Shown piece after piece: positions 1,225-24,277 of a DNA stretch of 64,000 nt. The notes under the pieces were generated by a model, which had not been told where the DNA came from, ran no database searches, and saw only the letters and a list, made by a program, of their open reading frames with translations. How positions within the stretch are numbered: position 1 is the stretch's first letter; every line of letters starts with the position of its first letter. The translations under genes and the position numbers were made by a program. Source of the stretch: an uncultured Actinomycetes bacterium (GTDB taxonomy: Bacteria; Actinomycetota; Thermoleophilia; UBA2241); contig CAVWIH010000024.1 in NCBI GenBank assembly GCA_963755025.1, positions 8,744 to 72,743 of the forward strand, read 5' to 3'.

Positions 1225-4200
1225 GTGACCACAGGCGCATCGCAGGGCTCCCGGGCCGCTTTCCGTGACTACCTCCAGGAAGTCGCCCGCAATCTCGAAG
1301 CCGGCAACGCCACCGAACACACCCACGGCCCGCACTCCAGGCTCTGCTTCAGGCGCTAGACCCTGGCGTGCGCGCGGTCAACGAGCCTAAACGCGTGGCC
1401 TGCGGCGCACCTGACTACATCGTCACGCGCAACGAGCTCCCTGTCGGCTACGTGGAGGCCAAGGACGTCGGCCGCTCGCTGGACAAGATCGAGCGCAACG
1501 AGCAGCTCAAGCGATACCGCGAGAGCTTGAGCAACCTCATTCTCACTGACTACCTGGAATTCCGCTGGTACCGCGACGGTGAGAGGAAGGATGCGGCGCG
1601 CCTCGCCTGCGTCGGCGACTCTGGCAAGCTACGCTCCGACGGCGAGGGCCAGGCGAAGGTGGCCTCTATGCTCAGTGCCTTCTTTGCACAAGAGCCACCA
1701 ATCGTGGGCAAGCCTGAGGACCTCGCAAGACGCATGGCCTCCTTGGCGCGAACGATTCACGACGTTATCAAACTGGCGTTCGAGACAGACCGCAGCGGCG
1801 GCTCACCGCTACGTGATCAGTTGGAGGGTTTTCGGCGTGTCCTGATCCACGACCTCGACGAAGAGCAGTTCGCCGACATGTACGCACAGACCATTGCTTA
1901 CGGGCTCTTTGCTGCGCGCGTGAACGCCCCGGCCGATGAGCACTTCAGCCGCCAGCACGCCGCCTACGACCTGCCGAAGACGAACCCGTTCCTGCGACAG
2001 ATGTTCGGTCAGATCGCCGGTCCCGAGCTCGACGACCGCATCGTCTGGGTGGTCGACGATCTGGCCGAGCTGCTCGCGCGAGCCCGCATGGACCTCGTGC
2101 TCGCAGACTTCGGCAAACGCACCCGTCAGGAAGATCCTCTGGTTCACTTCTATGAGACCTTCCTGAAAGCCTACGATCCGAAGATGCGCGAAGCGCGCGG
2201 AGTCTATTACACACCCGAGCCGGTGGTCAGCTACATCGTGCGCAGCGTCGACCACATCCTAAAATCCGAGTTCGGCCTGCCCGACGGCCTTGCTGACAAC
2301 TCGTTGATCGAGGTGCCGGTGCCGGGCAAGCCGAAAGAGAAACGCATGGTGCACAGGGTGCAGATTCTTGATCCAGCCTGCGGCACCGGCACCTTCCTCG
2401 CCCAGGTCATCGAAACGATTCGCGACACCGTGGTGACCGAGCATGGCGCCGGTATGTGGCCCGGCTACGTGCACGATCACTTGCTGCCGCGCCTGCACGG
2501 CTTCGAGCTGCTTATGGCGCCCTATGCCATCGCACACCTGAAGCTCGGCCTGCGCCTCAAAGAGACCGGCTATGACATCGAGCAAAGCGAGCGTCTGCGC
2601 GTGTATCTCACGAACTCACTTGAGGAGGCGCACGAGCGCGAGCACGGCCAGCTCACCGGCACGTGGCTGGCCGAAGAGGCTTCACTGCGCGAGCGAAGTC
2701 AAACGCGAGCTGCCGATCATGGTAGTCCCTCGGGAATCCGCCATATTCCGAATAGCTCGCAAAACACGGGCGAGTGGATATCTACTTATCGGTGACTACA
2801 AGCGGGGCCTTGGCGAACGCAAAGTGGAACCTCGACGACGACTACGTGAAGTTCATCCGTTTCGGTCAATGGCGAATTGACCAGACGGGCTCGGGCATCA
2901 TGGCGCTCATAACAAACCATGCGTTTCGCGACAACGCGACGTTCAGGCAGATGAGACGGTCGCTTATGACCTCCTTTGACGGCTTGTCCATCCTTGATTT
3001 GCACGGAGACAGTAGGCGCGGCGAAGCAAGCCCCGATGGACTCCCAGATACGAACGTGTTCGACATCCAGCAGGGAGTGTCAATTGGCCTCTTCGTGAGG
3101 CACGAGCAGAAGCCTCACGGAGGCTGTAAGGTCAGGTTCTCTGAGCTCTGGGGCACCAGGCCGCACAAGTACGAGGTCCTCCTGGCGACTTCCTGCGAAA
3201 GCAGCGAGTGGAGCCCTCTGCAGCCCCGCGAGCCCCAACTACTCCTCAAGCCTCAGGACGACGAGTTGGCAGAGGAGTACTACGGGGCACGCCGGTCACC
3301 GCATCTTCACCGAATACACCGACTGCGATCCAGACTGCGAGAGATTCGCTCGTCGTTGCATTCACTGCCGGCGAGCTTCGATCCAAACTGGGCGCATTTG
3401 TGGACCCGGTGGTCACTGACGAGGAGATACGGGGGCGTTTTGGAGTGGCCGACGGTCGCGGTTGGACGGTCCGAGAGGCACGAAGCGCGCTACGCGATGC
3501 CGGCATTCGCGATGACCTAGAGATGCCCTATTCGTACAGGCCCTACGACCAAAGGGTTGTCTACTACTCGCCAATCGTCGTTGCCTGGCCGCGCAATCGG
3601 ATCGAGCGGCACGTCGCAGGTAGAGCAAATCTAGTGCTGTTGTGCACACGTAACAGCAACAGCCCGTCTGATGGTATTGCTCTCGAAGTCGCGGTCTCGC
3701 CGACAAGAGACTGCTCGGGGTTCGCGTGGTGAGGCGAAGTACATGTACCTGTACAGGTGGGAGTCCGGGTTCGATTCGCCAGCCGGCTTCCAGCCCCCGG
3801 ATGGAAACGCCGCTGGCTCTCCTACGCCCAACCTGGATTCCACGTTCGTGAGGCGTCTTACGGAGGCGACTGGTCTTGAGTTCGTTCCAGCTGGGGCCGG
3901 GGACTGCCAAACAAGCGTTGGGCCTGAAGACATCTTGAACTACATGTTCGCAATTCTGTCGTCGCCGTCATATCGCAACAGATACGCGGACTTCCTGAGG
4001 TCGGATTTCCCTCGTATTCCGCTTACGTCCGATGCCACGCTCCTGCGGCAGCTCTGTCTGCTCGGCTCGCGGCTCGTCGCGCTCCACCTCTCAGAGGCCG
4101 ACGATCTTGTTCCTGGCGCCCGATTCGAAGGGATCGGCACTAATCGGGTCGAGACTATTCGCTACACGGAATCAGTCCAGGGTGGCGAGCACCGGCTGCG

Positions 4201-4432
4201 TGTGGATCAACAGCACCCAGTACTTTCAAGGGGTGCGCCCAATATCTGGGCATTTCACGTGGGCGGCTTTCAGGTTTGTGCCAAGTGGCTCAAAGACCGC
4301 AAGGGCCGTCAGCTCACCTACGACGACCTGGCGCACTACCAGTACATCATCGGCGCACTCGCCGAGACCATCGCGCTCATGCGTGAGATTGACGAGCTGA
4401 TCGATGCCAATGGAGGGTGGCCGATCGGCTGA
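1225..4432 (+). pseudogene. Type IIG / type ISP-like N6-adenine DNA methyltransferase-restriction enzyme, multiply frameshifted
   Basis: The N-terminal block FRDYLQEVARNLEAGNATEHTH shifts frame near 1325-1330 and continues as RPALQALLQALDPGVRAVNEPKRVACGAPDYIV. SAM motif ILDPACGTGTFL lies in ORF 1368..2795. Catalytic GNPPYSE (2732-2752) runs straight into TAG 2753-2755. Family-typical sequence continues in ORFs 2774..3520, 3208..3732 and 3671..4432, in alternating frames. Confidence 0.75.
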
Positions 4433-4513
4433 CGTAGTGTGCCTTGCCAGGGACGGCGAACATCGAGGCAAAGCTCCTAGCCTGTCTCGACCCGGGCACG
4501 TATGATGCCAGCC

Positions 4514-5757
4514 ATGAGCGGGAAGAGTCACCGGCCATCACGAGAACCTTGGGCGCGGAGCTTGGCGACTAGTCGCCAACCTGCCGCCTGTCGTCACTGG
4601 ATGGCAAGCGGCGCTACCCCGCACGACAAAGGTCGTCCACGCGAAGGGCGTTCGGGCAGCCGGTAAGGCCCTCGCCGACTGGCTCGCCGAACTCGAGGCC
4701 CACGACTGCACGGATCCCGATCGCCTGACCGTGGGCGAGGTCCTGCGGCGCTGGCTGGCCGAAGACGCAAAGCGGACGGTGCGCCCGAAAACCTACGAGC
4801 GGTACGAACAGCTCGTTGACAAGCACCTCAAGCCCTCGCTCGGCGCCATGCACGCCGCGGAGCTCACGCCAGCCGACCTCTCGGCTTTCTACGCCGCCAA
4901 ACAGGAAGGCGGTCGTCTCGACGGTCGCGATGGAGGTCTGTCGGCGCAAACGTGCCTTCACATGCACCGCGTCCTTCACCGCGCCTTCCAGTGGGCAGTC
5001 TACGGTGACCTGATGGCGCGCAACCCGGCCACGCGCGTGCGCAAGCCGCCGAGCCCGAGCGGCCCACGGCGCCGCACCTGGACTGACGAGCAGATCGCCG
5101 ACGCGATCGAGCTCGCGCGCGCCCACGATGCTCTACGTGCCGACCGTCCTGGCCGGCTGGGGCGGCCTGCGCCGCGGCGAGATCTGCGGCCTGGTCTGGA
5201 CGACGTCCTCTGGGACGCAAACGCCGTGGTGGTACGCACCTCGGTTGAGCAGACCAAGGACGGTCTCCACGACCTGCCGACCAAGACTCGCGCCGGCGAG
5301 CGCGTGGTCGGGCTGCCCACCAGGCGATCGACGTTCTGCGCGAGCATGCACCCGCCAGGACGAGATGAAGATGGCCAAGGGTCGACGCTGGAACGCTCTC
5401 GGCCGCGTGATTTGCCGCGCCGATGGGTCGCCGATGCCCCCGAATGCGCTCTCGAACCGCTGGTCAGAGTGGGTAGTGCGCAAGAAGCTTGAGCCGCGCA
5501 TCTCCTTCCACGATTTGCGCCATAGCCACGCGACCATCCTCTACCACGCCGGCGTGCGCACCACGACGGTTTCCGAGCGCCTCGGGCATTCGACGCCGGC
5601 GATCACACGCGCCATATACCTGCATGGCACGGAGGCGACAGACCTCGCCGCGGTGACTATTCTCGAGGAGCGCATCAAGGTGGCGCAGATTTCGCACTCG
5701 ATTAGCACTTTGACCTTTGACCCATCAGAGCAGGTCGAAGAAAACTCCTGCAAATAG
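4514..5757 (+). pseudogene. Tyrosine recombinase / phage-type integrase, multiply frameshifted
   Basis: Starts MSGKSH. The arm/core-binding part is in ORF 4731..5492. GLRRGEICGLVW and the catalytic C-terminus HDLRHSHATILYHAGV..ERLGHSTPAITRAIYLH are in ORF 5128..5757. Reading switches frame at least 3-4 times (about 4550, 5125, 5200, 5320-5345). Confidence 0.8.
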
Positions 5758-5763
5758 GCACAT

Positions 5764-5861
5764 GGAGCGGCTTCCGGTCCGGTGACCGGCGCGGTCTTCA
5801 AAACCGTCTGCGGGGCGGTGCTCCCGTCCTGGGTGGGTTCGACTCCCATGCCGCTCCGCCA
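5764..5861 (+). tRNA. selC: tRNA-Sec (anticodon UCA), CCA encoded
   Basis: Hand-folded. 8-bp acceptor stem GGAGCGGC/GCCGCTCC. 6-bp D stem CCGGTC/GACCGG with a 4-nt loop. Anticodon loop CTTCAAA (TCA at 5798-5800). Long variable arm (5811-5826). 5-bp T stem with loop TTCGACT. Discriminator G followed by CCA. This is the classic bacterial 8/5 tRNA-Sec architecture. Confidence 0.9.
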
Positions 5862-6216
5862 GCCAGTGAGGACGCTGATGTCCAACAAGTGAGCTGCGGG
5901 GCAGTGTGAGTCGCTAAGCTGCCCTGCGCTTGCGCGCCGATTGTCCTGTCGCGGCGCAGGCGACGGGGACCTGCGCTGGTCCAAAATGGTAGGCTGTCGC
6001 TGTGAGCCACTCATCCCGCACGCGCGCGAGCAGACCCCGAGCGGCAGCCCGTTGGCTGCCCGGTTGTCAGTGCTGGACCCTGGAGCCCCTCGTTCACATC
6101 TGAGTCGAGCCGCGGGCCAACGTCGCCCTTTGACCGCGTTCCAGCGCCGCAGAACCGCGCTCGCGGCGGCTGCAAGACCTTCTCTTTCGCAGACCCCTTC
6201 GACCAACGGAGTGACC

Positions 6217-7677
6217 ATGACAGACACCGACGGAAACGGCCTTCGCCTTCAGGCCGGGTTTCTCGGCGACGACGACAAGCAGGCCATCTACGACGCCGCG
6301 CTTGAGATCGCCGAAACGGTAGGCATGCGCGTGCACCAGAAAGAAGCGCTCGAGCTGCTGCGCGCCGCCGGCGCCGAGGTGGTCGGCGACGACCTCGTGA
6401 AGCTGCCCCGGCGCCTCGTCGAGCGCGCGCGCTCCACGGCTCCCTCGGTGGTGCCGGTCTTCGACCGCAACGGCGAGCCCGCCATGCGCCTGGGCGGCCG
6501 GCGCAGCTACTTCGGCACCGGCTCCGACCTCATGAACATCTACGACCTCGAGACCGGCGAGCGGCGCCTGTCGGGGCTCGACGACGTGACCCGCGCGGCC
6601 AACCTTTGCGACGGCCTGCCCAACATCGACTTCGTCATGTCGTGCGCCTACCCCAACGACGTCGAAGACCCGCACCAGGCCTACGTGGCCGAGTTTCGCG
6701 CCATGGTCATGGGCACCACCAAGCCCATGGTCGTGACCGCCGAAGGCGTCGACGACCTCGAGGTCATGTGGCAGATCGCCTCCGCGGTGCGGGGCGGCGC
6801 CCAGGCGCTCGTCGAGAAGCCTTACTTCGTCATGTACGGCCAGCCCAGCAGTCCGCTCGAGCACCCGCGCGACAGCCTCGACAAGCTGCTCTTCTGCGCC
6901 GACAAGGGCATTCCCGCGATCTACTCGCCGGCGCCGCTGGCCGGCGCCACCGCGCCGATCACCGTGGCCGGGCACATCGCCCAGGGCACGGCCGAGTCGC
7001 TCTTTGGCCTCGTCATGCACCAGCTCCGCAACCCCGGCGCGCCGTTCCTGTTCGGCATCGGCCCGGCGGTCCTCGACATGGCCACCGCGCAGTCGTCGTA
7101 CAACGCTCCCGAATACCTCATGACCTATCTCGGCGCCATCGAGATGGCGCGCTGGCTCGACCTGCCGAACTGGGGCTACGGCGGCACCAGCGATTCGCAG
7201 CTGGTCGACGCGCAGGCCGGCATGGAAGCCGGCGAGCTCACCCTGCTCGCCATGATGGCCGGCTCCAACTTGAACCACGACGTCGGCTACCTCGACTACG
7301 GCATGACCGGCGCGCTCGAGCTCGTCGTGATCGTCGACGAGTTCGTCGCCATGAACCGCCGTCTGCTCGGCGGCATCACGGTCGACCGCGAGACCCTGGG
7401 GCTCGACGTGATCGCCGCGACCGGCCCCGGCGGCGACTTTCTGTCGACCAAGCACACCGCCAAGCACATGCGCGCGGCGCAGTGGCGCCCGACGATCATG
7501 AACCGCAAGGGCTACGAGCGCTGGACCGAGAGCGACAGCCCCGACCTGCGTGAGGCGGCGCGCCTGAAGGCGCAGCGCCTACTCGCCACGCACGTCGCAC
7601 CGCCGGTCGCCGCCGACGTGGCCGCCACGATCGACGCGCTCGTCGAGGGCTTCGCGCCGGCGGGTCGCCAGGGCTGA
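6217..7677 (+). CDS. MttB-superfamily methyltransferase (non-Pyl), paralogue 1
   Basis: ATG at 6217 is preceded by GGAG. Family blocks present: NIDFVMS, TKPMVV, SPAPLAGATAP, HDVGYLDYG, GPGGDFLS. The ORF is uninterrupted with no in-frame TAG. The upstream part of ORF 5941..7677 looks non-coding. Confidence 0.85.
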   Translation: MTDTDGNGLRLQAGFLGDDDKQAIYDAALEIAETVGMRVHQKEALELLRAAGAEVVGDDLVKLPRRLVERARSTAPSVVPVFDRNGEPAMRLGGRRSYFGTGSDLMNIYDLETGERRLSGLDDVTRAANLCDGLPNIDFVMSCAYPNDVEDPHQAYVAEFRAMVMGTTKPMVVTAEGVDDLEVMWQIASAVRGGAQALVEKPYFVMYGQPSSPLEHPRDSLDKLLFCADKGIPAIYSPAPLAGATAPITVAGHIAQGTAESLFGLVMHQLRNPGAPFLFGIGPAVLDMATAQSSYNAPEYLMTYLGAIEMARWLDLPNWGYGGTSDSQLVDAQAGMEAGELTLLAMMAGSNLNHDVGYLDYGMTGALELVVIVDEFVAMNRRLLGGITVDRETLGLDVIAATGPGGDFLSTKHTAKHMRAAQWRPTIMNRKGYERWTESDSPDLREAARLKAQRLLATHVAPPVAADVAATIDALVEGFAPAGRQG

Positions 7678-7679
7678 CC

Positions 7680-8777
7680 TTGAGCGCTCCGTCTCGACAC
7701 GATGCGCCGGGGCCCGCGAGGGGCCCGGCGCCCGTGGCGCTCCACCCGGCCGCGCTCGGCCCGGAGTTGCGCGCGGCGCTGACCGGGCCGTGCGGCGCTC
7801 CCGAGCTCGCGCTGCCCTGGATCGACCGCTTCTTCGAGCCCGACGAGCTGCGCCTCGTCGCCGTGCTGGCGGCCGGTCCGCTTACGCTGCCGGCCGCCGC
7901 GTCGGCGCTTGGTCGCCCGCTGCCGCCCGAGTTCCTCGAGCGCGCCGTGCGTCGGGCGGTCATCGACCGCCCGACGCACGACACCGTCGCGCTGGCCGAC
8001 TTTGCCTCGCGCTTCGAGGTCTGGACGCTCTTCGAAGGCTGGAAGGACCTGCCTCACGATGTGCGACGCGCCTTGGCCGACTGGTCGCTCGCGCGTTACA
8101 TCGAAGCCAAGCGCCCGCAGGTCGAGAGCCTGCTCGCGGGCGAGGCGCCGCAGCCCGGCCTCGAGAACGCCGAGTACCTGCTGCTGCCCGAAGCCGAGGC
8201 GCTGCTCGCCCGCGCTGCGCACGTCTACCTGTGGCCGTGCGACTGCCGCGCCGCCATGGAACGCTGCCGCAAACCGTCGCTCGTCTGCCTGCGCTTCAAC
8301 AACGACCGCGGCCTGGGCTGGGAGATCTCGCACGAACGCGCCGTCGAGGTGCTGCGCGATGCCGACCGCCACGGCCTCATGCACACCGGCGAGGTCGCCA
8401 CTCCCGGCGAGCTCACGCCGATCACCGCCGGCGCCATCTGCAACTGCTGCGGCGACTGCTGCTTTCCGCAGCTCGCCGCCGACGAGCTCGGCGCCACGCG
8501 GGTCTGGCCGCGGGTACGCTACGTCGCCGAGCGCGACACGGCGACCTGCACGTCGTGCGCGCGCTGCGCGCGCCGTTGCCCGTTCGGGGCCTTCACGGTC
8601 GAGTCCGGTGCGCAGTCCGAAAGCGCCGCGCAGGCCGAAGGCGCCGCGCAGACCAAGGGCGCCGCGCGCCGGTCCGCGCCCGTCACGTTCCACCCCGAGC
8701 TCTGCCGCGGCTGCGGGCTCTGCGCGACCGGCTGCCCCGAAGGCGCCATCACCATGGCGCCGCTGCCCGGCGCCTGA
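7680..8777 (+). CDS. Cys-rich iron-sulfur protein with C-terminal 2x[4Fe-4S] ferredoxin motifs
   Basis: Starts 2 nt after the mttB stop (TTG; exact start uncertain). Contains WPCDCRAAMERCRKPSLVC, CNCCGDCC, CTSCARCARRCP and CRGCGLCATGCP. Three in-frame 18-bp repeats (SESAAQ/AEGAAQ/TKGAAR) lie between the two ferredoxin motifs. Confidence 0.6.
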   Translation: MSAPSRHDAPGPARGPAPVALHPAALGPELRAALTGPCGAPELALPWIDRFFEPDELRLVAVLAAGPLTLPAAASALGRPLPPEFLERAVRRAVIDRPTHDTVALADFASRFEVWTLFEGWKDLPHDVRRALADWSLARYIEAKRPQVESLLAGEAPQPGLENAEYLLLPEAEALLARAAHVYLWPCDCRAAMERCRKPSLVCLRFNNDRGLGWEISHERAVEVLRDADRHGLMHTGEVATPGELTPITAGAICNCCGDCCFPQLAADELGATRVWPRVRYVAERDTATCTSCARCARRCPFGAFTVESGAQSESAAQAEGAAQTKGAARRSAPVTFHPELCRGCGLCATGCPEGAITMAPLPGA

Positions 8778-8918
8778 GGCCGCTCGGCCGGCGCGGTGCG
8801 GCGCGCCGCCCGCCTCGCCGCCGGCGGGCGTCGCTTCGCCGGCACTCTGCGGCGCACGCCTGCCGACCTGAACAGCTCGCGACGCTTCCGCGCCCCGCCG
8901 CCGGGCAATAAAGGTGGC

Positions 8919-10406
8919 ATGACGGTCCTTCTGAGCGGCGCGGCGCTGACTCTCGACGAGCTCGTGCGAGTGGCGCGCGGCGGCGAGGCCGTCGGGCTTG
9001 CGCCCGACGTCGCGCCGCGCATGGCGCGCTCGCGCGCGGCGGTCGACGCGGCGCTCGCGCGCGGCGACGCCGTCTACGGCCTCACGACGGGGGTGGGCGT
9101 GCTCAAGCGCGTGCCGCTGGCCGCCGACGAGGTGGTGCGCTTCAATCGCCGTCTGCTGCAGAACCACCGCGTCGCCCAGGGCGTGCCGGTGGCGCCCGAC
9201 GTGGTGCGCGCCACCATGCTCCGCCTGGCCAACGGCTTCGCCGCCGGTCATGCCGGCGTGCGCTATGAACTGGCCCAGCGCCTGGTCGAGGCGCTCAACC
9301 GCGGCGTCTGCCCGGTGGTGCGCGAGCTGGGCTCGCTCGGCGAATCGGACCTGGCGCCGCTGGCCGACCTGGCGGCCGGCCTGTTCGGCGACCCCGACCT
9401 GGCTGCCGGCGAGGGGCTCGCCGTGCTCAACAACAACGCCTTCTCCACCGCCACGGCCGCCCTCGCCGTGCACGACGCGGGGCGCCTGCTCGACGCCGCC
9501 GACGCCGCCGGCGCGCTCAGCCTCGAGGCGTTCGCCGCCAACCTCACCATCCTGCACCCGGCGATCGTCGCGGCGCGGCCCGACAAAGGCCTCGCGCTGG
9601 CTGTCGGGCGACTGCGCCGCCTGCTCGACGGCAGCTACCTGTGGCGCGAAGGCGCCGCCCGCAACCTGCAGGACCCGCTCACCTTCCGCTCGCTCCCGGG
9701 GGTGCACGGCGCCTGCCACGACGCTCTGGCCTACGTGCGGCAGCGTCTGGCCGTGGAGCTGAACGCCGCCCAGGGGAACCCCCTGGTGGTGCCCGGCGAG
9801 CAGCGCCTGATCTCGGTGGCCAACTTCGAGGTGCTGGCGCTCGCCGCGGCGCTCGACCTTGCGCGCATCGCCCTGGCGCCGCTGCTGACGAGTGCCGACG
9901 AGCGCGTCGTCAAGCTCCTCGAGACGCCCTGGTCGGGGCTGCCCACCGGCCTTGCGGTGGCGCCCGGCACGGCGGAGAGCGGCCTCAGCATCTACGCGAT
10001 CGCCGGCGAGGCCATGACGGCCGAGGCCCGCACGTTGGCGCAGCCGGTCTCGTTCGAGCTGGCGAGCAGCGCCGGCGCCGAGGGCATCGAGGACCGCGCC
10101 ACGATGCTGCCGCTCGGCGCGCGCCGCCTCGCCGCCATGACCGGCCTCGGCGAGCGCATCCTGGCCATCGAGCTGCTGGTGGCCGCCCAAGCGGTGGAGC
10201 TGCGCGGCAGCGGACCGCTGGGGCGCGGCACGCGGCGCGTGTTCGAAGAGGTGCGCGAGCGCGTGCCGTTCGTGGGTCAGGACGATCCCCTGCCGGCCGA
10301 CCTGGACGGCCTGGTCGAGCTCATTCGCGGCGGCGCGCTCGCCGGTTCGATGGGTGTGGCCACGGCGCCGGCTTCGCCCGCGGCGCCCGTGTCGCGCGTG
10401 CCCTGA
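8919..10406 (+). CDS. Histidine/phenylalanine ammonia-lyase-fold protein lacking the MIO-forming Ala-Ser-Gly triad
   Basis: ATG 8919 is preceded by AAAGGTGG. HAL blocks VYGLTTGVG and NLQDPLTFRS are present. The MIO segment reads GSLGESDLAPL (9330..9362) rather than GS.GASGDLAPL. Confidence 0.8.
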   Translation: MTVLLSGAALTLDELVRVARGGEAVGLAPDVAPRMARSRAAVDAALARGDAVYGLTTGVGVLKRVPLAADEVVRFNRRLLQNHRVAQGVPVAPDVVRATMLRLANGFAAGHAGVRYELAQRLVEALNRGVCPVVRELGSLGESDLAPLADLAAGLFGDPDLAAGEGLAVLNNNAFSTATAALAVHDAGRLLDAADAAGALSLEAFAANLTILHPAIVAARPDKGLALAVGRLRRLLDGSYLWREGAARNLQDPLTFRSLPGVHGACHDALAYVRQRLAVELNAAQGNPLVVPGEQRLISVANFEVLALAAALDLARIALAPLLTSADERVVKLLETPWSGLPTGLAVAPGTAESGLSIYAIAGEAMTAEARTLAQPVSFELASSAGAEGIEDRATMLPLGARRLAAMTGLGERILAIELLVAAQAVELRGSGPLGRGTRRVFEEVRERVPFVGQDDPLPADLDGLVELIRGGALAGSMGVATAPASPAAPVSRVP

Positions 10407-10470
10407 ACCGGGCTCGCCGACGATCGCGGCTCACGGCCGACGACCGCGGCCCAATGCCGCCGGGTCAGGG

Positions 10471-10770
10471 CTACCGATCGACCTCTGAGCGCTCTGGCAA
10501 GGCCGCGGCAGGTCGAGTGGCGGAAGACTGCGCCGCTGCAGGCGGCGCGCCGACAAGCTGCGCGCCGGCACGCGGCGCGGCGGCAAGCTGCGCGCCGACA
10601 AGCGGCGCGGCGCCAGACGGTGCGGCGGCATCGATCGGCAGTGACGGCAGTTCATCGTGGTTGCCGGGCAGCAACTCGACCAGCACCACGGCCGACACCA
10701 CAAAGGCAATCGCCACGACGACCATCATCAGCCAGACCATGGGGTCGAGCTGCGACAGCAGGTGGACCAT
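10471..10770 (-). CDS. Small membrane protein (hypothetical)
   Basis: ATG 10770 is preceded by GGAGGGA. One clear TM helix (MVWLMMVVVAIAFVVSAVVLV) is followed by an Ala/Pro-rich tail built from short DNA repeats. Confidence 0.4.
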   Translation of the reverse strand: MVHLLSQLDPMVWLMMVVVAIAFVVSAVVLVELLPGNHDELPSLPIDAAAPSGAAPLVGAQLAAAPRAGAQLVGAPPAAAQSSATRPAAALPERSEVDR

Positions 10771-11265
10771 GGGGTGTCCCTCCAGACGGCGTTTTCCCGG
10801 TGTCATCCTTCCCGTCGGGGCCGAGTCGTAACGAGAAGGTCGACCAGGGGGGCGGACGGTGCGGCACGACGCCTGGCGCGGCGCGTCACGCGCGTGGCAC
10901 ACCGCCGCATCGGCGCTGCAGGCACAGAGAGTTGTGTTGCATCGCCGGTCGTCGTAACATGCGCGCACACCGTCTCCACGTCGGATTCGGCACACCACGT
11001 CACTGTCGTTGTTCAGACGTTCCGGGGGAGAGACCGATGTCTGGCGCAGTACGGTCGCTCAGAGCCAATCGCCGCAGGGCCCGCGGGCCGGGCGTCCCTC
11101 CCTACGTCCTCACGCAAGACAGCACGAGCTTCGACTCCCACGCTCCCTGACGGCCCACCGGCCGCCGACTGACACTCGGTCGCCGTCACCGTCACATCCG
11201 TTTTCTCTTTCGCGGCGCCGCCCCACCGGGCGCGTCGTCCTAGACGAATCCTTAGGAGACATGAC

Positions 11266-11932
11266 ATGGGAGACAAGCTGACGCTACGGATGCTCTCCTC
11301 CGACGAGGTCGGCAAAGTGCGCGAGCAGTGCCTGCACCTGCTGTCCGAGATGGGCATGAAGATCGACCACGAAGCCGTCCTGCGCATACTCGCCGACGCC
11401 GGCGCGCAGGTCGACTTCGAGACCAGGGTCGTGCGCTTCCCGGCCGCCCTGGTCGAGTCGGCCATAAAGACGGTCCCCGGCGAGCTCACGGTCAAGGGCG
11501 CCGAGGAGCGTCACGACTGCAAGATCCCGCACCCCGACGGCCTGTTCTACTCCTGCACGAACATCCAGAGCATGCTGCACCACGACCCCGACACCGGGCG
11601 CTTCGTCGACAACACGGCCCAGAAGTACGCCGAGTGGTGTCAGGTCGTCGAGCTCCTCGACCACGCCGACATCTGCGCCATTCAGACGCCCATGGACGTG
11701 CCGGCCGAGAGCGCCGAGGTGCACGCCCTCGCCATCCAGATGCAGAACACGACCAAGCCGCTCTGGATGCACGCCTTCAGCCGCGAGGCCGTACCCTTCA
11801 TGTTCGAGCTCATGGTCGCCCGCGTGGGCAGCGTCGAGGCCCTGCGCGAGCGCAGCCTCGTCATCATCAACCCCGGCACCGTCTCGCCGTTCATCATCAA
11901 GGAGATGGACGCCGAGGAGATCACGGTCGGCA
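11266..11932 (+). pseudogene. MttB-superfamily methyltransferase, N-terminal fragment only (paralogue 6)
   Basis: ATG 11266 follows TTAGGAGAC. About 222 aa match the N-terminal half of the other paralogues (..TTKPLWMH..VSPFIIKEMDAEEI). Homology stops near 11932, where the antisense of a permease begins. Confidence 0.7.
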
Positions 11933-12482
11933 GCAGCGAGTTGCGCAGCACGTGGGTGAAGAGCACGCGCCGCGGCGACAGGCCGTTCAGGTTGGCGGTG
12001 CGCACGTAGTCCATCTGCAGCACGTCGACGGTGCTCGATCGCGTCATGCGTACCACGTAGGCCAGGCTGGTGAGCGCCACGGTAATCGCCGGCAGCACGA
12101 GGTAAGGGAACGCCTGCGTGAAGCTCGAGTGCGGGTCGATCGCCGAGCTCGCCGGGAACCAGTGCAGTTTCACGGCGAAGATCGAGATGAGGATGACGCC
12201 GCTCACGAACTCGGGCAGACCGATGAAGGCCAGCGAGCCTATGGAGATCGTCTGGTCGAGCCAGGTGTTTCGTCGCAGGGCGGCGATCATGCCCAGGAAG
12301 ATGCCCAGCGGCACGTAGAAGGCAAAAGCCACCAGGGCGAGCATGAGGGAGTTGCGCAGCCGCTCGAGGATCACGCCGCGCACCGGCTCGTTCATGCTGA
12401 CCGAGGTGCCCCAGTCGCCGCGGATGTAGCTCGAGACCCAGCGCTCGTACTGCGTGGGGATGGGCTTGTCGAGGCCGGCATA
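11933..12482 (-). pseudogene. Opp/Dpp-type ABC permease, internal fragment in inverted orientation
   Basis: The minus strand reads GLDKPIPTQYERWVSSYIRGDWGTSVSMNEPVRGVILERL...YVRTANLNGLSPRRVLFTHVLRNSLLPTV. It lacks roughly the first 50 aa and the C-terminus. Confidence 0.7.
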
Positions 12483-12686
12483 GGCTGGCTCATCGGCGGC
12501 CTCATCATCACCGAGTCGGTCTACTCGTACCCGGGCATCGGCCGGCTGCTGCTCTTCGCCATCACCAACCGCGACCTCAAGCTGGTGCAGGCCACGGCGT
12601 TGCTGATCGTCATCATCTACGTGGTCGCCAACTTCGTCGCCGACATCATCTACGCGCTGCTGAACCCGCGCATCAGGTACCAGTAG
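12483..12686 (+). pseudogene. Opp/Dpp-type ABC permease, C-terminal fragment
   Basis: The plus strand reads AGIGWLIGGLIITESVYSYPGIGRLLLFAITNRDLKLVQATALLIVIIYVVANFVADIIYALLNPRIRYQ*. This is exactly the continuation expected after ..LLPTV on the opposite strand. Confidence 0.7.
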
Positions 12687-12762
12687 GGATCAGTAGGGCG
12701 ATGCCGGCGCGGCGTCGCCGCGCGGCCGGGACGCGCGGTCGCCGCGCGGCCGGGGACGCGCG
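12681..12762. repeat. Tandem duplications at and after the permease stop codon
   Basis: cagtagggat/cagtagggcg is a 10-bp duplication that includes the TAG. It is followed by gtcgccgcgcggccggg(g)acgcgcg x2 (24/25 bp). Confidence 0.8.
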
Positions 12763-12825
12763 GCGACGCGCGCTGTTGCGCGACGGCTATGATGTCGGGG
12801 TCGCCGTCGTCGCAAGGAGGGATTC

Positions 12826-14211
12826 GTGCTCAAGCACCCCCGCAACCCGAGGCGCGTGCAGCGTGACCTCGAGGTGCCGCCCATCTTCACCGCCGAGCTT
12901 TCGCGCGTGCCGCGCGACGAGCTGCCGGCGCGCGGCATGCCGCCCGACGCCGCCTACCAGATCATCCACGACGAGCTCATGCTCGACGGCAACGCCCGCC
13001 TGAACCTGGCGACCTTCGTGACGACCTGGATGGAGCCCCAGGCCGACAAGCTCATGGCTGAGACCTTCGACAAGAACATGATCGACAAAGACGAGTACCC
13101 GCAGACCGCCGAGCTCGAGCTGCGCTGCGTGAACATGCTCTCGCGCCTCTGGCACGCGCCGGCCGCCGACGAGGCCGTGGGCTGCTCGACCACTGGTTCG
13201 AGCGAGGCCTGCATGCTCGGCGGCCTCGCCCTCAAGCGCCGCTGGCAGAAGCGGCGGCGGGCAGCGGGCCTGCCCGCCGATCGCCCCAACATGGTGATGG
13301 GCGTCAACGCCCAGATCTGCTGGGACAAGTTCATGAACTACTGGGACGTCGAACCCCGCCTGGTGCCCATGGAGGGCGACCGCTACCACCTGGCGGCCGA
13401 CGAGGCCGTCGCCCTGTGCGACGAGAACACGATCGGCATGGTCGTCATCATGGGCTCGACCTACGACGGCAGCTACGAGCCGGTGGCCGACACCTGCCGG
13501 CTGCTCGACGAGCTCCAGGCGCGCACCGGCATCGACGTGCCGGTGCACGTCGACGGCGCCTCGGGGGCGATGGTCGCGCCCTTCATCGACCCCGACCTGC
13601 AGTGGGACTTCGCCCTGCCGCGCGTGGCCTCGATCAGCACCTCGGGACACAAGTACGGCCTGGTCTACCCCGGCGTGGGCTGGGTGGTGTGGCGCGACGC
13701 GCAGGCGCTGCCCGAGGAGCTCATCTTCTGGGTGAACTACCTGGGCGACGACATGCCGACCTTCGCCCTGAACTTCTCGCGGCCGGGCTCGCAGATCGTC
13801 ACCCAGTACTACAACTTCCTGCGCCTGGGCTTCGACGGCTACGCCAGGGTGCAGGGCTACTCGCGCGACGTCGCCCTCTACCTGTCCGACAAGATCGCCG
13901 GCCTGGGGCCGTTCGAGCTGCTCACCCGCGGCGACGAGCTGCCCGTCTTTGCCTTCACGCTGGCGGCCGACGTGAAGAACTTCAGCGTCTTCGACGTGGC
14001 CGACTGCCTGCGCGAGCGCGGCTGGCTCGTACCGGCCTACACGTTCCCCAAGAACCGCACCGACCTGGCGGCGCTGCGCATCGTCGTGCGCCGCGGCTTC
14101 ACGCACGACGTCGCCGACCTGCTGCTGGCCGACTTCGCCCGTCAGCTGCCACGCCTCGCCAGGCAGACGGCGCCGGCCAACGAGGGCTCTGCGTCATCCT
14201 TCCATCACTAG
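12826..14211 (+). CDS. gadB: Glutamate decarboxylase (PLP-dependent)
   Basis: GTG 12826 follows GGAGG. Contains NLATFVTTWMEP, DKDEYPQTAELE and STSGHKYGLVYPGVGWVVWR (PLP lysine). Confidence 0.9.
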   Translation: MLKHPRNPRRVQRDLEVPPIFTAELSRVPRDELPARGMPPDAAYQIIHDELMLDGNARLNLATFVTTWMEPQADKLMAETFDKNMIDKDEYPQTAELELRCVNMLSRLWHAPAADEAVGCSTTGSSEACMLGGLALKRRWQKRRRAAGLPADRPNMVMGVNAQICWDKFMNYWDVEPRLVPMEGDRYHLAADEAVALCDENTIGMVVIMGSTYDGSYEPVADTCRLLDELQARTGIDVPVHVDGASGAMVAPFIDPDLQWDFALPRVASISTSGHKYGLVYPGVGWVVWRDAQALPEELIFWVNYLGDDMPTFALNFSRPGSQIVTQYYNFLRLGFDGYARVQGYSRDVALYLSDKIAGLGPFELLTRGDELPVFAFTLAADVKNFSVFDVADCLRERGWLVPAYTFPKNRTDLAALRIVVRRGFTHDVADLLLADFARQLPRLARQTAPANEGSASSFHH

Positions 14212-14330: not shown

Positions 14331-15710
14331 CTACCTCAGGCAGAACTCGTCGAGCTGACGGCGCGTGACGTCGTCCAGGTCGTCGGGCGGCTCGTGGGCG
14401 GCGAGGCGGCGCTCCACCTCGGCGCGCGCCGCGGCGCGCACGTCGCCGTCGCCCAGGGCGCGCCAGCGCTCGGCGCTCTCGCGCACCAGGAACGTGGCGC
14501 GGTCGAGGTCACGGCCGTGGCGGCGCGTGTGCCCTTGACCCAGGTAGTCCCCGCCGGGGCCGACCGCGGCGATCACGTCGGTCGCCAGCGCCTCGGCGTC
14601 GGCGGCCGTCGGGGCGGCGGCGAGGCGCAGGGCGCAGATGAGCTCGTCGTCGAGCACGTACTTCTCGAGCGACAGCACGTTGAACGAGCTCAGGATGCCG
14701 GCGGCCTGAAAGAGAAAGTCGCCGCCGGCGTCGGCCGAGGCCGACAGTCCCATGGTCGACTCGAGCAGCGCCTGGGCGTCGGGCACGTGCGAGTCGGTGA
14801 CGGCTCCGCCCGCGCGCACCGGCAGTCCGGCGTGGTGGGCGAGGCTCACCGTCGCATTCGCCATCAGGGCGAACTCCGGTGTGCCGAAGTGGGCGGCGCC
14901 GGTGCGCATGCTCGACATCGTCGAGACGGCGCCGTAGATGAACGGCGAGCCCTCGCGCGCGGCCTGCCCCAGCACCAGCGCGGCGAGCACCTCGGCGTGC
15001 TGCACGGTCAGCGTGCCGGCCGGCGTCGCCGGGCCGGTCGCGCCGCCCATCACGCAGGCGGTCACGCAGGCGGGCTGACCGAGAGCGGCCCAGCGCCGCA
15101 GGATGCGCGCGGTCTCCACCGACAGCAGCAGCGGAGAGTTGGTGTTGAGCACGATCAGCGCGCGCGGAGTGTCGGCCCACTGCGCGCCGTAGAGGATCTC
15201 GTTCATGGCGATCGCCTCGTCGACGTCGGGCTCGAGCGACGCGGTCCACTCCATCGATTTGTCGCTCAGCGTGAGGCGAGCGTGGTCGGAGCGCCGCGTG
15301 CGCTGCTCCTCGGGCAGGTCGAGCGGCTCGATGCAGTCGCTGTTGAAGTCGAGGCCCGGCGACAGATGGCCGAGCTTGACCGTCGCCTGCGCGTCGGCCA
15401 GGGTGCCGGGTCGCACCACGGCGCCGTCGAGTACGTAGGCTGGCCCCGAGCCGCTGCCGAACACCGGCTGACCATCGCCGAAGCGCAGGTCGCGCCCCGG
15501 GTTACGCCCGGTCAGGGTGAATGCCCTCGGTGTACCGGAGAGGGCGCGCTCGACGACCTCGCGCTCGATGAACACGCGGCGACCGTCGGCACGGGCTCCC
15601 ACCGTCTTGAGCAGCGCGACGGAGTCGTCGTCCATGACGACCACGCCGGTCTGGGCCAGCACCCGCAGGGCGGCCTCGTGGATGGCGACGATGTCGGCGG
15701 GCGCGAACAT
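14331..15710 (-). CDS. MttB-superfamily methyltransferase, divergent paralogue 2
   Basis: MFAPADIVAIHEAALRVLAQTGV...GPGGDYLG. It is collinear with the other paralogues but the most divergent. The upstream part of ORF 14331..16463 is not coding-like. Confidence 0.75.
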   Translation of the reverse strand: MFAPADIVAIHEAALRVLAQTGVVVMDDDSVALLKTVGARADGRRVFIEREVVERALSGTPRAFTLTGRNPGRDLRFGDGQPVFGSGSGPAYVLDGAVVRPGTLADAQATVKLGHLSPGLDFNSDCIEPLDLPEEQRTRRSDHARLTLSDKSMEWTASLEPDVDEAIAMNEILYGAQWADTPRALIVLNTNSPLLLSVETARILRRWAALGQPACVTACVMGGATGPATPAGTLTVQHAEVLAALVLGQAAREGSPFIYGAVSTMSSMRTGAAHFGTPEFALMANATVSLAHHAGLPVRAGGAVTDSHVPDAQALLESTMGLSASADAGGDFLFQAAGILSSFNVLSLEKYVLDDELICALRLAAAPTAADAEALATDVIAAVGPGGDYLGQGHTRRHGRDLDRATFLVRESAERWRALGDGDVRAAARAEVERRLAAHEPPDDLDDVTRRQLDEFCLR

Positions 15711-15730
15711 CAGCGGCTGCGCGCGGCGAA

Positions 15731-15820
15731 GGCCGGCGACCGAGGGGCTCGCGAGATGGGGACCGGCGGCCACAGGGCTCGCGGGGCGAGGGCCGGTGAC
15801 CAAGGGGCTCGCGCGCGCGA
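15731..15820. repeat. Imperfect 30-bp tandem repeat x3 just upstream of the mttB paralogue 2 start
   Basis: Units start at 15731, 15761 and 15791 and share ggccgg.gacc..ggggctcgcg. Confidence 0.7.
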
Positions 15821-22891: not shown

Positions 22892-24277
22892 CTAGCTGCC
22901 GGGCGGTGCCTGCTCGACGATCTGGTCGAGTCGGCGTCGCAATGGTTGGTCGAGTGTGAAGGTCGGAGGGCTTGCGAGCAACTCCCGAGTGCGCCGCGCC
23001 ACGCGCTGCTTGAGCGTGGTCGCGCCCTCGGCCTGCCAGCGTTTGTAGACCGACTGGTCGAGCAGGCTGGACTGGCGGAACGTGCGGTAGCGGCGGCGTG
23101 TCAGGGGGCGCGCCAGGTGATTGCCGCCGGGGCCGGCGAGCATGATCTCGTCGAGGGCCAGGGCCTCGTCGTCGAAGGGCAGTCGTTCGCCGAAGGCGCG
23201 GGCGTAGCCCACGAGCTCGTCGCCGAGCACGAGGTGCTCGTACGAGCTCTGCAGCCCCGACTCGAGGTAGCCGACGTCGTGGATGAGGGTGGCGCGGCAG
23301 AGCTCGCCGAGCACGGCGCCCATGGCCGCCTCGGCTGCGGCCTGCTCGTCGTCGAGCTTGCTGTCGGAGTCGCCCGCGTAGGCCCAGCTCGGCAGGCCGT
23401 ACCAGCGCGCCAGGTCGATGCACGCCTGGTTGCCCAGGGCCACGCCCGGCGCCCGGTAGGGCTCGATCATGGTGCGCATGTTGAGCACGCCGACGCCGGC
23501 GCCGTACAGGAACGGCGCGCCGGGGTGGGCGAGCTGGTGCACGACGAGGCCGGCCAGTACCTCGGCGTTGGCCACCACGACGACCGCCGCCAGCGAGGCC
23601 GGCGCCGTGGTGCCGGCCGACGGCGACGGCGCCAGCACGGCCGGCACGTCGAGCTCGCCGCAGACGAGGAGCTTGTCGAGGCAGCCTTCGTCTAACTGCA
23701 GGGGCGGCGACGACATGGTAAGGCAGGCGAGGCTGCCGGCCCGGCCGCAGGCGGCCGCCATCTCGACCATCACACGCAGCGAGGCGCCGCCGAACGGGCT
23801 CGAGACGACGATCGGCTTGCGCGTGCCGGCCAGCATGGCGGCGAGCTGAGCCAGGTCGACGCGCTCGGGGTCGGCGTCGTCGGGCAGACCCATCGACATG
23901 ACGAAGTCGATGTTGGGGAGGGCTTCGGCGAGCCGGGCGAAGGTCTCGACGTCGGCCAGACGGGCGCGCCGCCGGCCGTCGTGCTGGTCGGCCACGTACA
24001 GGCAGTCGGGCCCGGTGCCGTACCAGGAGAGGCCGTCGCTGAGCTCGCGGTCGAGGCTGCCGTCGGCGGCGCGACCGTGCAGCACGAAGCCGCGAGGCGC
24101 GCTCGCCACCGCCTGGTCGACCAGGTCGCGCGACAGGCGGGCGCGGGTGCCGGAGACCTGCGCGCCCGCCCGGCGCAGCAGTTCGAGCGCCCGCGGGTGG
24201 CGCACCTCGACGCCGGTCTCGGCGAGCACCCGGCAGGTCGCGTCGTGCACCTTGCGGCAGGCCGCGTCGTGCCACAC
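22892..24277 (-). CDS. MttB-superfamily methyltransferase, paralogue 3
   Basis: Contains NIDFVMSMGLP, HDVGYLESGLQSS and GPGGNHLA. The GTG start at 24277 has no clear RBS, and homology suggests a few more residues upstream. Confidence 0.8.
   Translation of the reverse strand: MWHDAACRKVHDATCRVLAETGVEVRHPRALELLRRAGAQVSGTRARLSRDLVDQAVASAPRGFVLHGRAADGSLDRELSDGLSWYGTGPDCLYVADQHDGRRRARLADVETFARLAEALPNIDFVMSMGLPDDADPERVDLAQLAAMLAGTRKPIVVSSPFGGASLRVMVEMAAACGRAGSLACLTMSSPPLQLDEGCLDKLLVCGELDVPAVLAPSPSAGTTAPASLAAVVVVANAEVLAGLVVHQLAHPGAPFLYGAGVGVLNMRTMIEPYRAPGVALGNQACIDLARWYGLPSWAYAGDSDSKLDDEQAAAEAAMGAVLGELCRATLIHDVGYLESGLQSSYEHLVLGDELVGYARAFGERLPFDDEALALDEIMLAGPGGNHLARPLTRRRYRTFRQSSLLDQSVYKRWQAEGATTLKQRVARRTRELLASPPTFTLDQPLRRRLDQIVEQAPPGS

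Follow-up and report, generated by a model that had tools for sequence, protein, structure and literature searches.

We identified a candidate pathway for the breakdown of methylated histidine in a 64,000-nucleotide stretch of DNA from an uncultured Thermoleophilia bacterium (contig CAVWIH010000024.1, positions 8,744 to 72,743; this whole stretch is called the window hereafter). Three adjacent genes of the window encode a methyltransferase of the MttB superfamily (MttB1), a cysteine-rich iron-sulfur (Fe-S) protein and a lyase that has the fold of histidine ammonia-lyase (HAL) without the Ala-Ser-Gly triad of the 4-methylideneimidazole-5-one (MIO) group. All three are intact and full length relative to their families. 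We propose that the products of this trio together break down an N-methylated histidine related to hercynine (histidine betaine), and we put the probability of this reading at roughly 0.55. The genes had been singled out by an earlier reading of the DNA letters (the original prediction), and the features reported there for each of the three were found again at their positions (Table 1).

The lyase is best placed by its active-site signatures. In alignments to solved HALs and to ergothionase, its MIO-site loop is one residue shorter than the pattern GS(V/L)GASGDLAPL, and no Ala-Ser-Gly was found elsewhere in the aligned core of the protein. The blocks YGLTTGVG and NLQDPLTFRS are kept. The segment SLGESDL lies on SIGEGDI of ergothionase, with equal loop length and a glutamate at the same place, and QDPLTFR matches the ergothionase QDPLSFR where HAL has QDAYSLR. 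In the Protein Data Bank (PDB), the ergothionase of Treponema denticola (6s7j) ranks first by sequence (E 5e-57), closely followed by the HALs, and it is the top match by fold as well. The lyase also scores below the cut-offs of all NCBIfam HutH, PAL and TAM models (319 versus 539 bits for TIGR01225 and 334 versus 524 bits for NF006871). These comparisons bear out the original prediction of a MIO-less, ergothionase-like enzyme whose triad is gone and whose loop is shortened by one residue.

The residues Y53, H83, Q251, R257, N287 and E391 (lyase numbering) are invariant in the clade of the lyase, as seen in alignments A2 and A3, which hold 37-40 sequences and have a mean column identity of 69%. 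In HAL and ergothionase, the residues corresponding to Q251, R257 and N287 bind the carboxylate, those corresponding to H83 and E391 bind the imidazole, and Tyr53 is catalytic. Ile361 of the lyase aligns with Lys384 of ergothionase (T. denticola numbering), a residue that binds the thiolate of ergothioneine and is essential for activity. Because this thiolate-binding lysine is replaced by isoleucine, ergothioneine is unlikely to be the substrate of the lyase. We conclude from the aligned sequences that the lyase is most probably a functional MIO-less HAL-fold enzyme for an imidazole-bearing substrate other than ergothioneine. Its predicted reaction is the elimination of a methylated amine from histidine derivatives methylated at N-alpha, with urocanate as the product.

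Among 1.84 billion cluster representatives, a profile search found 14,805 relatives of the lyase, and loop and QDP signatures were compared, and a tree built, for the full-length members of the best 150 of these together with reference sequences. Among the cluster representatives and references, 71 sequences have a two-residue loop with QDP and 23 have ASG or SSG with QDA; the MIO-less group accounts for most of the 150 best-scoring 50%-identity clusters. The MIO-less loop pattern GS.G-X-X-DL was present in every one of the 118 sequences with a detected loop among the 120 closest homologues. In a rough neighbour-joining tree the MIO enzymes form one clade, and the MIO-less sequences split into sub-clades by the residue in the Lys384 column: Lys throughout the clade of the T. 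denticola ergothionase, Arg or His in other clades, and I, V, N, P or H in the clade of the window lyase. The lyase thus belongs to an uncharacterised sub-clade of a large MIO-less group, apart from the MIO enzymes.

MttB1 matches the Pfam profile MTTB (PF06253) over profile positions 34-492 of 500. Its open reading frame (ORF) begins with ATG, has GGAG upstream and runs without interruption or in-frame UAG to a TGA at 7675-7677; a threonine aligns with the pyrrolysine (X) of the Methanosarcina MttB 7xcl. On TIGR02369, the model for trimethylamine methyltransferase, the protein scores 364 bits and so falls below the cut-off of 525. The best solved relative is the D. hafniense glycine betaine methyltransferase MtgB (2qne/9yce, E 1.5e-61), to which MttB1 aligns end to end. 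The glycine-betaine ligands of MtgB, Y97, R312, H348 and F356, align with S103, W319, H354 and G362, so that the histidine alone is kept. Because threonine stands at the pyrrolysine position and three of the four MtgB ligands are replaced, the substrate of MttB1 should differ, and we regard MttB1 as a non-pyrrolysine member of the family that probably acts on a different, probably larger, substrate than MtgB. According to the literature, non-pyrrolysine MttB enzymes act on glycine betaine, proline betaine, carnitine, gamma-butyrobetaine and choline, are active in aerobes too, and pyrrolysine is considered necessary for the activation of trimethylamine. We predict that MttB1 demethylates a methylated histidine derivative, with a corrinoid protein as the acceptor of the methyl group.

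The gene for the Fe-S protein follows the MttB1 stop after 2 nt when read from TTG 7680. GTG 7734, the start in public gene calls for 99%-identical proteins of 347 aa, may instead be the true start. The protein carries WPCDCRAAMERCRKPSLVC, CNCCGDCC and two CxxCxxCxxxCP motifs (CTSCARCARRCP and CRGCGLCATGCP). The 17 cysteines of these motifs (CxCx6Cx6C, CxCCxxCC and the two ferredoxin motifs) are invariant or 99% kept in 120 homologues. Pfam and NCBIfam match the ferredoxin domain only, with no Pfam match for residues 1-269 even at E<=5, and nothing beyond that domain was found by a profile search of the PDB or, at the level of the fold, by a Foldseek search of the PDB with an AlphaFold2 (AF2) model (pLDDT 91.5). 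The N-terminal approximately 100 residues are modelled as helix-helix-helix plus beta hairpin, with weak Foldseek matches to SmtB, MarR and IclR (E>=0.3). The model thus weakly suggests a winged-helix-like N-terminal part, followed by a novel cysteine-rich central domain and the C-terminal ferredoxin domain. We detected 314 members, mostly from Thermoleophilia. With its 17 conserved cysteines and no structural relative found beyond the ferredoxin domain, this is a new protein family. Between the Fe-S gene and the lyase gene lies a gap of 141 nt (8778-8918); the lyase begins with an ATG at 8919, and a good ribosome-binding site, AAAGGTGG, stands in front of it.

Table 1. Coordinates of the trio, of neighbouring features in the window and of AFOR-family genes at related loci.
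Feature	Sequence	Position	Strand	Details
MttB1, non-pyrrolysine MttB-superfamily methyltransferase, 486 aa	window	6217..7677	+	PF06253 E 9e-82
Fe-S protein, 365 aa (TTG 7680) or 347 aa (GTG 7734)	window	7680..8777	+	C-terminal 2x[4Fe-4S] ferredoxin domain
MIO-less HAL-fold lyase, 495 aa	window	8919..10406	+	PF00221 E 9e-111; top PDB match 6s7j
MIO-site segment GSLGESDLAPL, lyase residues 138-148	window	9330..9362	+	Glu-Ser in place of Ala-Ser-Gly
MttB2 remnant, N-terminal ~219 codons of an MttB paralogue	window	11266..11922	+	PF06253 positions 31-234 only
Glutamate decarboxylase	window	12826..14211	+	TIGR01788 649 bits, above cut-off
MttB3, intact MttB paralogue, 4 kb downstream	window	14331..15773	-	PF06253 E 1e-104
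tRNA-Sec	window	5764-5861	+	ARAGORN; Rfam 72.8 bits; 355 nt upstream of MttB1
AFOR-family gene	L017	4986-6941		directly upstream of MttB-(Fe-S)-lyase genes
AFOR-family gene	L018	2725-4638		directly upstream of MttB-(Fe-S)-lyase genes
AFOR-family gene	L103	4625-6559		directly upstream of MttB-(Fe-S)-lyase genes

The trio is a conserved unit on many independent contigs, which answers in the affirmative the question of gene-neighbourhood conservation raised with the original prediction. The three genes are adjacent and co-oriented at twelve loci with lyase identities of 68-96% (L004-L007, L009, L012, L013, L021-L023, L025 and L031), and the same order recurs at 62-63% lyase identity in L017 and L103, there with a gene of the aldehyde:ferredoxin oxidoreductase (AFOR) family upstream. 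The arrangement is therefore kept in at least 14 contigs over a range of 62-96% lyase identity. In L103 the genes of the trio overlap by 8 and 4 nt.

More distant homologues of the Fe-S protein (43-53% identical) are encoded in large operons of the histidine-utilisation (Hut) type. The L018 operon encodes, in order, AFOR, MttB, MttB, lyase, corrinoid protein, Fe-S protein, amidohydrolase, FTCD, cyclodeaminase, urocanase, Pterin_bind and GntR/UTRA. In L014 the order is corrinoid protein, MttB, lyase, MttB, MttB, Fe-S protein, HutI, FTCD, cyclodeaminase, Pterin_bind, GntR/UTRA and corrinoid protein, with urocanase just upstream of the operon, and in L100 it is MttB, Fe-S protein, HutI, FTCD, Pterin_bind, cyclodeaminase, GntR/UTRA and corrinoid protein. 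NCBIfam models recognise HutI (TIGR01224) and a methyl-tetrahydrofolate:corrinoid methyltransferase (NF005719) above their cut-offs in these operons; the corrinoid protein is MtgC-like and the matches of the GntR/UTRA regulator include HutC, all below cut-off. The corrinoid and Pterin_bind genes stand beside MttB1 orthologues in L014 and L018 and beside an MttB3-type gene in L100.

In L014 and L018 the MttB gene that immediately precedes the lyase gene has a product with 62-63% identity to MttB1, and the lyase that it precedes is a canonical HAL with GSVGASGDLAPL and QDAYSLR. When L017, L103 and L031 are included, identity to MttB1 is 62-71%; in these three loci the lyase beside the MttB1 orthologue is MIO-less. 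A gene set of MttB1-type, MttB3-type and Fe-S genes is thus paired either with a MIO HAL and the whole Hut pathway or with a MIO-less lyase. This two-way combination links MttB1 with a substrate that derives from histidine and is acted on ahead of the lyase, and it argues against trimethylamine as that substrate. Of the trimethylated betaines that the original prediction had in mind (hercynine/ergothioneine type), a histidine-derived methylated compound gains support from the MttB1 and Fe-S orthologues in Hut operons; ergothioneine itself does not, given the isoleucine at Lys384.

The Fe-S gene occurs in MttB, lyase and Hut operons. Its stop overlaps the start of a hutI-type (imidazolonepropionase) gene by 4 nt in L014 (10993-10996), L018 (11101-11104) and L100 (8993-8996), a hint that the protein is functionally connected with the Hut branch as well as with the MttB system. 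In three separate lineages the MttB-(Fe-S)-lyase genes come directly after a gene of the AFOR family, whose members use tungsten/molybdopterin (Table 1), and the enzyme that it encodes might be an electron source for the Fe-S protein.

Lyases 58-63% identical to that of the window, mostly from soil metagenomes and Gaiellaceae, have other methyltransferases as neighbours. They are flanked by a stand-alone MetE-like gene (PF01717) and a homocysteine S-methyltransferase gene (PF02574). A common operon in soil metagenomes encodes the MetE-like protein, the MIO-less lyase, the homocysteine S-methyltransferase, a RihA-like nucleoside hydrolase and an Opp-type ABC transporter (L002, L003, L040-L042, L054-L057, L090, L091 and many others), and the MetE-like stop often overlaps the lyase start. 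Over all 94 loci with a MIO-less lyase, 19 are linked to MttB and 53 to MetE-like or homocysteine S-methyltransferase genes. At the 42 loci with at least 1.5 kb of sequence on both sides, a methyltransferase gene lies within 2.5 kb of the lyase in 34, namely MttB in 14 and PF01717 and/or PF02574 in 20. The pairing of one lyase clade with two non-homologous methyltransferase systems points to a substrate that is a methyl donor. Minor contexts of the lyase include a HutI-like amidohydrolase (L047), an arginase-family HutG-like gene (L011) and a cysteine-dioxygenase-like gene (L088). In the last of these (L088, 5640-9871), a lyase of the clade with proline in the Lys384 column is encoded between cysteine-dioxygenase-like cupin and isochorismatase-family genes, together with an Amidohydro_2 gene and an IclR regulator; this lyase may act on a different, sulfur-related substrate.

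Taken together, we hypothesize the following pathway, in which the substrate, the order of steps and the role of the Fe-S protein are what we infer. MttB1 would take a methyl group from methylated histidine and pass it to a corrinoid protein encoded elsewhere and from there to tetrahydrofolate. The MIO-less lyase would remove the still-methylated alpha-amino group by beta-elimination, with Tyr53 as the base, and the resulting urocanate would enter the ordinary Hut pathway to glutamate. The Fe-S protein would be an accessory redox protein, its likeliest job being to maintain the corrinoid as Co(I) by donating electrons of low potential; the redox or activation partner envisaged by the original prediction is plausible. 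We prefer the order in which MttB1 acts first and dimethylamine is then eliminated from N,N-dimethylhistidine; demethylation followed by elimination would explain why demethylase and lyase are tightly coupled in two versions. Alternatively, the lyase would take the betaine directly and release trimethylamine, while MttB1 would use this betaine or a closely related one. A bolder form of the proposal, to which we give a rather low probability, is that the lyase clade catalyses a new class of reaction. Its substrate would be a partly demethylated histidine betaine, from which dimethylamine or methylamine would be eliminated after the methyl groups have been harvested by hercynine-specific MttB/corrinoid or MetE-like/homocysteine S-methyltransferases, and the Fe-S protein would be a new ATP-independent corrinoid activator or electron donor.

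Several observations weigh against this pathway. The characterised MIO-less lyases strictly need a trimethylammonium group, which argues against the elimination of dimethylamine and makes a demethylase and a lyase acting on one betaine look redundant. We know of no non-pyrrolysine MttB enzyme for an aromatic amino-acid betaine or for tertiary or secondary amines. Searches of the 64-kb window found no gene for a corrinoid protein, a Pterin_bind protein or an AFOR-family protein, and tblastn with HutU, HutI and FTCD queries found no hutU, hutI or FTCD there; the pathway could therefore work only with genes elsewhere in the genome. Among the loci compared, these Hut genes were seen in the distant relatives L014, L018, L100 and L101 only. 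The nearby transporters are of the SBP_bac_5 type and not of known betaine-binding types. The Fe-S gene is missing from 5 of the 19 MttB-linked loci (for example L008, L028 and L029); conversely, it occurs with no MttB within 8 kb in L101, where it is divergent to urocanase, and alone in unrelated contexts in L102 and L104. The counted lyase loci are phylogenetically non-independent. Neither the fold of the lyase (AF2 model, TM-score 0.89 to 6s7j and 0.90 to the HAL 1b8f) nor its pairwise identity (approximately 30% to ergothionase and 33-36% to canonical HAL) discriminates between the two enzymes; the loop, the QDP signature and the tree are more informative for its placement.

We considered other explanations for the same genes. 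The original prediction had the lyase release the amine and the MttB homologue handle it: histidine betaine would be cleaved to urocanate and trimethylamine, and MttB1, together with a corrinoid protein, would demethylate the freed trimethylamine. Every MIO-less HAL-fold enzyme characterised so far is indeed a trimethylammonia-lyase, and the MttB superfamily was founded on the trimethylamine methyltransferase, on whose model MttB1 does score. However, that score is below the cut-off, the pyrrolysine considered necessary for trimethylamine activation is a threonine in MttB1, and among solved structures the protein is nearest to MtgB, a betaine enzyme. In addition, orthologues 62-63% identical to MttB1 stand directly upstream of MIO HALs, where no trimethylamine is made. 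We therefore consider this route improbable. Another alternative, unlikely in our view but deserving some weight, is that MttB1 and the lyase work on different methylated histidines and are grouped only since both routes supply the Hut pathway with histidine or urocanate. MttB1 might for example remove a ring N-methyl or one N-alpha methyl group while the lyase frees trimethylamine from hercynine. Each enzyme would then keep the chemistry of its family, including the trimethylammonium requirement of the lyase; the existence of a MIO-less lyase for N-pi-methyl histidine betaine shows that histidines with several methyl groups do serve as substrates; orthologues of MttB1 pair with canonical HAL in L014 and L018, and several MttB paralogues can occur in one operon. 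The tight coupling seen in the overlaps of L103 and, at many loci, between the MetE-like stop and the lyase start is better explained by consecutive steps or a complex than by independent feeders, and ring N-demethylation by an MttB enzyme is unprecedented.

The trio could also be less than a module. The lyase would then be a decayed or non-catalytic HutH paralogue and its neighbourhood incidental synteny among close relatives, in keeping with its scores below the HutH cut-offs and with the long synteny shared by the closest relatives, which includes unrelated genes (ferritin, aminotransferase). Yet the catalytic and ligand residues are invariant in alignments of high column identity, the MIO-less group dominates the best-scoring clusters, and the methyltransferase link recurs with non-homologous partners at 58-63% lyase identity, all of which leaves this explanation very improbable. 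We regard it as somewhat unlikely, though worth serious attention, that the Fe-S protein is a DNA-binding regulator that senses redox state, or an enzyme acting in the urocanate branch, instead of a corrinoid electron carrier. The likeness of its N-terminal 100 residues to SmtB, MarR and IclR regulators, the 4-nt overlap with hutI and the loci L101, L102 and L104 would agree with such a role. The Foldseek matches are weak, however, and 17 conserved cysteines, enough for up to four clusters, are more typical of electron-transfer proteins. The gene also lies inside enzyme operons, beside AFOR-family genes in L017, L018 and L103, and the Hut-type operons already have a GntR/UTRA regulator.

Further MttB genes lie in the window. 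The MttB2 remnant has an intact counterpart of 480 aa in L004 (94% identical), and the gene is absent in L009. DNA homology with L004 ends at about 11922, and a minus-strand ABC-permease fragment lies at 11682-12689; MttB2 was truncated by rearrangement. The region that separates the lyase gene from that of the glutamate decarboxylase is thus variable and rearranged, since MttB2 is cut here, intact in L004 and absent in L009. A read-through pyrrolysine or selenocysteine stop in the ORF of the fragment (11266-12009) was rejected: the translation beyond approximately 11900 is not protein-like, and the high third-position G+C that runs past the stop stems from the minus-strand ABC-permease fragment. 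MttB3 is 42-45% identical to the extra MttB genes of L014 (b and c) and L100 and 57% identical to an MttB fragment in L017, and its synteny is conserved in L009 and L013; MttB3 may act in one pathway with the trio. In addition to MttB1, intact MttB-family genes were found at 14331-15773 (MttB3), 22892-24277, 24324-25658 and 48344-49750, all on the minus strand, two of them in tandem next to SBP_bac_5 solute-binding protein and GNAT genes. With five intact and one truncated copy in the window, the source genome shows a marked expansion of non-pyrrolysine MttB genes. In L013 and L009 the glutamate decarboxylase gene is the next gene downstream of the lyase. The Hut pathway ends in glutamate; whether the gene belongs to the module is uncertain, and its position beside the lyase may be no coincidence.

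The window as a whole is a chromosome segment of approximately 70% G+C with yidC and jag at 36.6-38.4 kb, and its closest relatives are metagenome-assembled genomes of Thermoleophilia/Actinomycetota. An Rfam scan of the whole window found only the tRNA-Sec and no riboswitch or other RNA upstream of MttB1. Simple scans of 5500-13000 found no sigma-70-like promoter and no intrinsic terminator, although such scans are uninformative for this phylum. In 10 of 12 relatives the tRNA-Sec gene keeps its syntenic place upstream of MttB1, 0.36 to about 4.8 kb away. To its left, 1368-5492 has a lower G+C content (0.60-0.65) and contains fragments of a type ISP restriction-modification enzyme (N6_Mtase, Type_ISP_C) and the N-terminal part of a phage-type integrase; it looks like the remnant of a mobile element at the tRNA-Sec gene.

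Fungi and actinobacteria produce large amounts of hercynine and ergothioneine, and the breakdown routes that we found in the literature all begin with a trimethylammonia-lyase. A route that harvests methyl groups would, if true, change the view of the flow of carbon, nitrogen and methyl groups from these compounds in soil. It appears in two versions, one B12-dependent in Thermoleophilia and one with homocysteine-dependent methyltransferases in Gaiellaceae and other bacteria of soil metagenomes. To our knowledge, thousands of non-pyrrolysine MttB homologues have no known substrate. The link to histidine-utilisation genes and HAL-fold lyases offers a testable class, hercynine and related methylated histidines, and, if the proposal is true, the MttB described here would be the first whose substrate comes from an aromatic amino acid. 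In addition, a large clade of uncharacterised MIO-less lyases and the new family of Fe-S proteins are defined by these results. Our literature searches returned no paper linking MttB to hercynine or ergothioneine, none on MttB with histidine-utilisation genes and HAL-fold lyases, and none on the combination of the trio, in line with the original prediction, which could name no described operon of this composition.

Among known systems, trimethylammonia-lyases have been described for ergothioneine, histidine betaine and N-pi-methyl histidine betaine. Ergothionase (6S7J) shares with the window lyase the HAL fold, the absence of the MIO triad, the shortened loop, QDPL(S/T)FR and the Tyr/His/Glu/Gln/Arg/Asn ligands. 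It belongs, however, to a different sub-clade, differs at Lys384, and its genes are described with thiourocanate-processing or flavocytochrome partners and not with methyltransferases as here. Similar in the Lys384 position are the Shewanella woodyi histidine betaine lyase Swoo_3913 and the N-pi-methyl histidine betaine lyase SO_3299, which we compared with the window lyase by published description only: both are MIO-less, have a neutral Asn or Gln at Lys384 where the window lyase has a neutral Ile, and convert sulfur-free histidine betaines to (methyl)urocanate. Both are periplasmic and coupled to urocanate-reductase flavocytochromes in anaerobic respiration, whereas the window lyase has no such partner and is encoded beside MttB. 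HutH resembles the lyase in fold, substrate-binding residues and presumed product, urocanate, and follows the MttB1 orthologue in L014 and L018; unlike the window lyase, it has Ala-Ser-Gly and QDAYSLR, and the lyase falls far below the HutH cut-offs.

MttB1, for its part, resembles MtgB, MtpB, MtcB and MtyB, which are TIM-barrel members of the MttB family without pyrrolysine, and its orthologues are, as in other non-pyrrolysine MttB systems, encoded with an MtgC-like corrinoid protein and a Pterin_bind methyltransferase. It departs from MtgB in its replaced glycine-betaine ligands and in its partners, which are histidine-utilisation genes and HAL-fold lyases. The Fe-S protein recalls the RamA-type (RACE) activators, in that a gene for an Fe-S protein lies next to genes for corrinoid methyltransferases. 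This likeness is a functional analogy only: outside the ferredoxin domain, no homology of the Fe-S protein to a named family was detected in Pfam, NCBIfam or the sequences and folds of the PDB.

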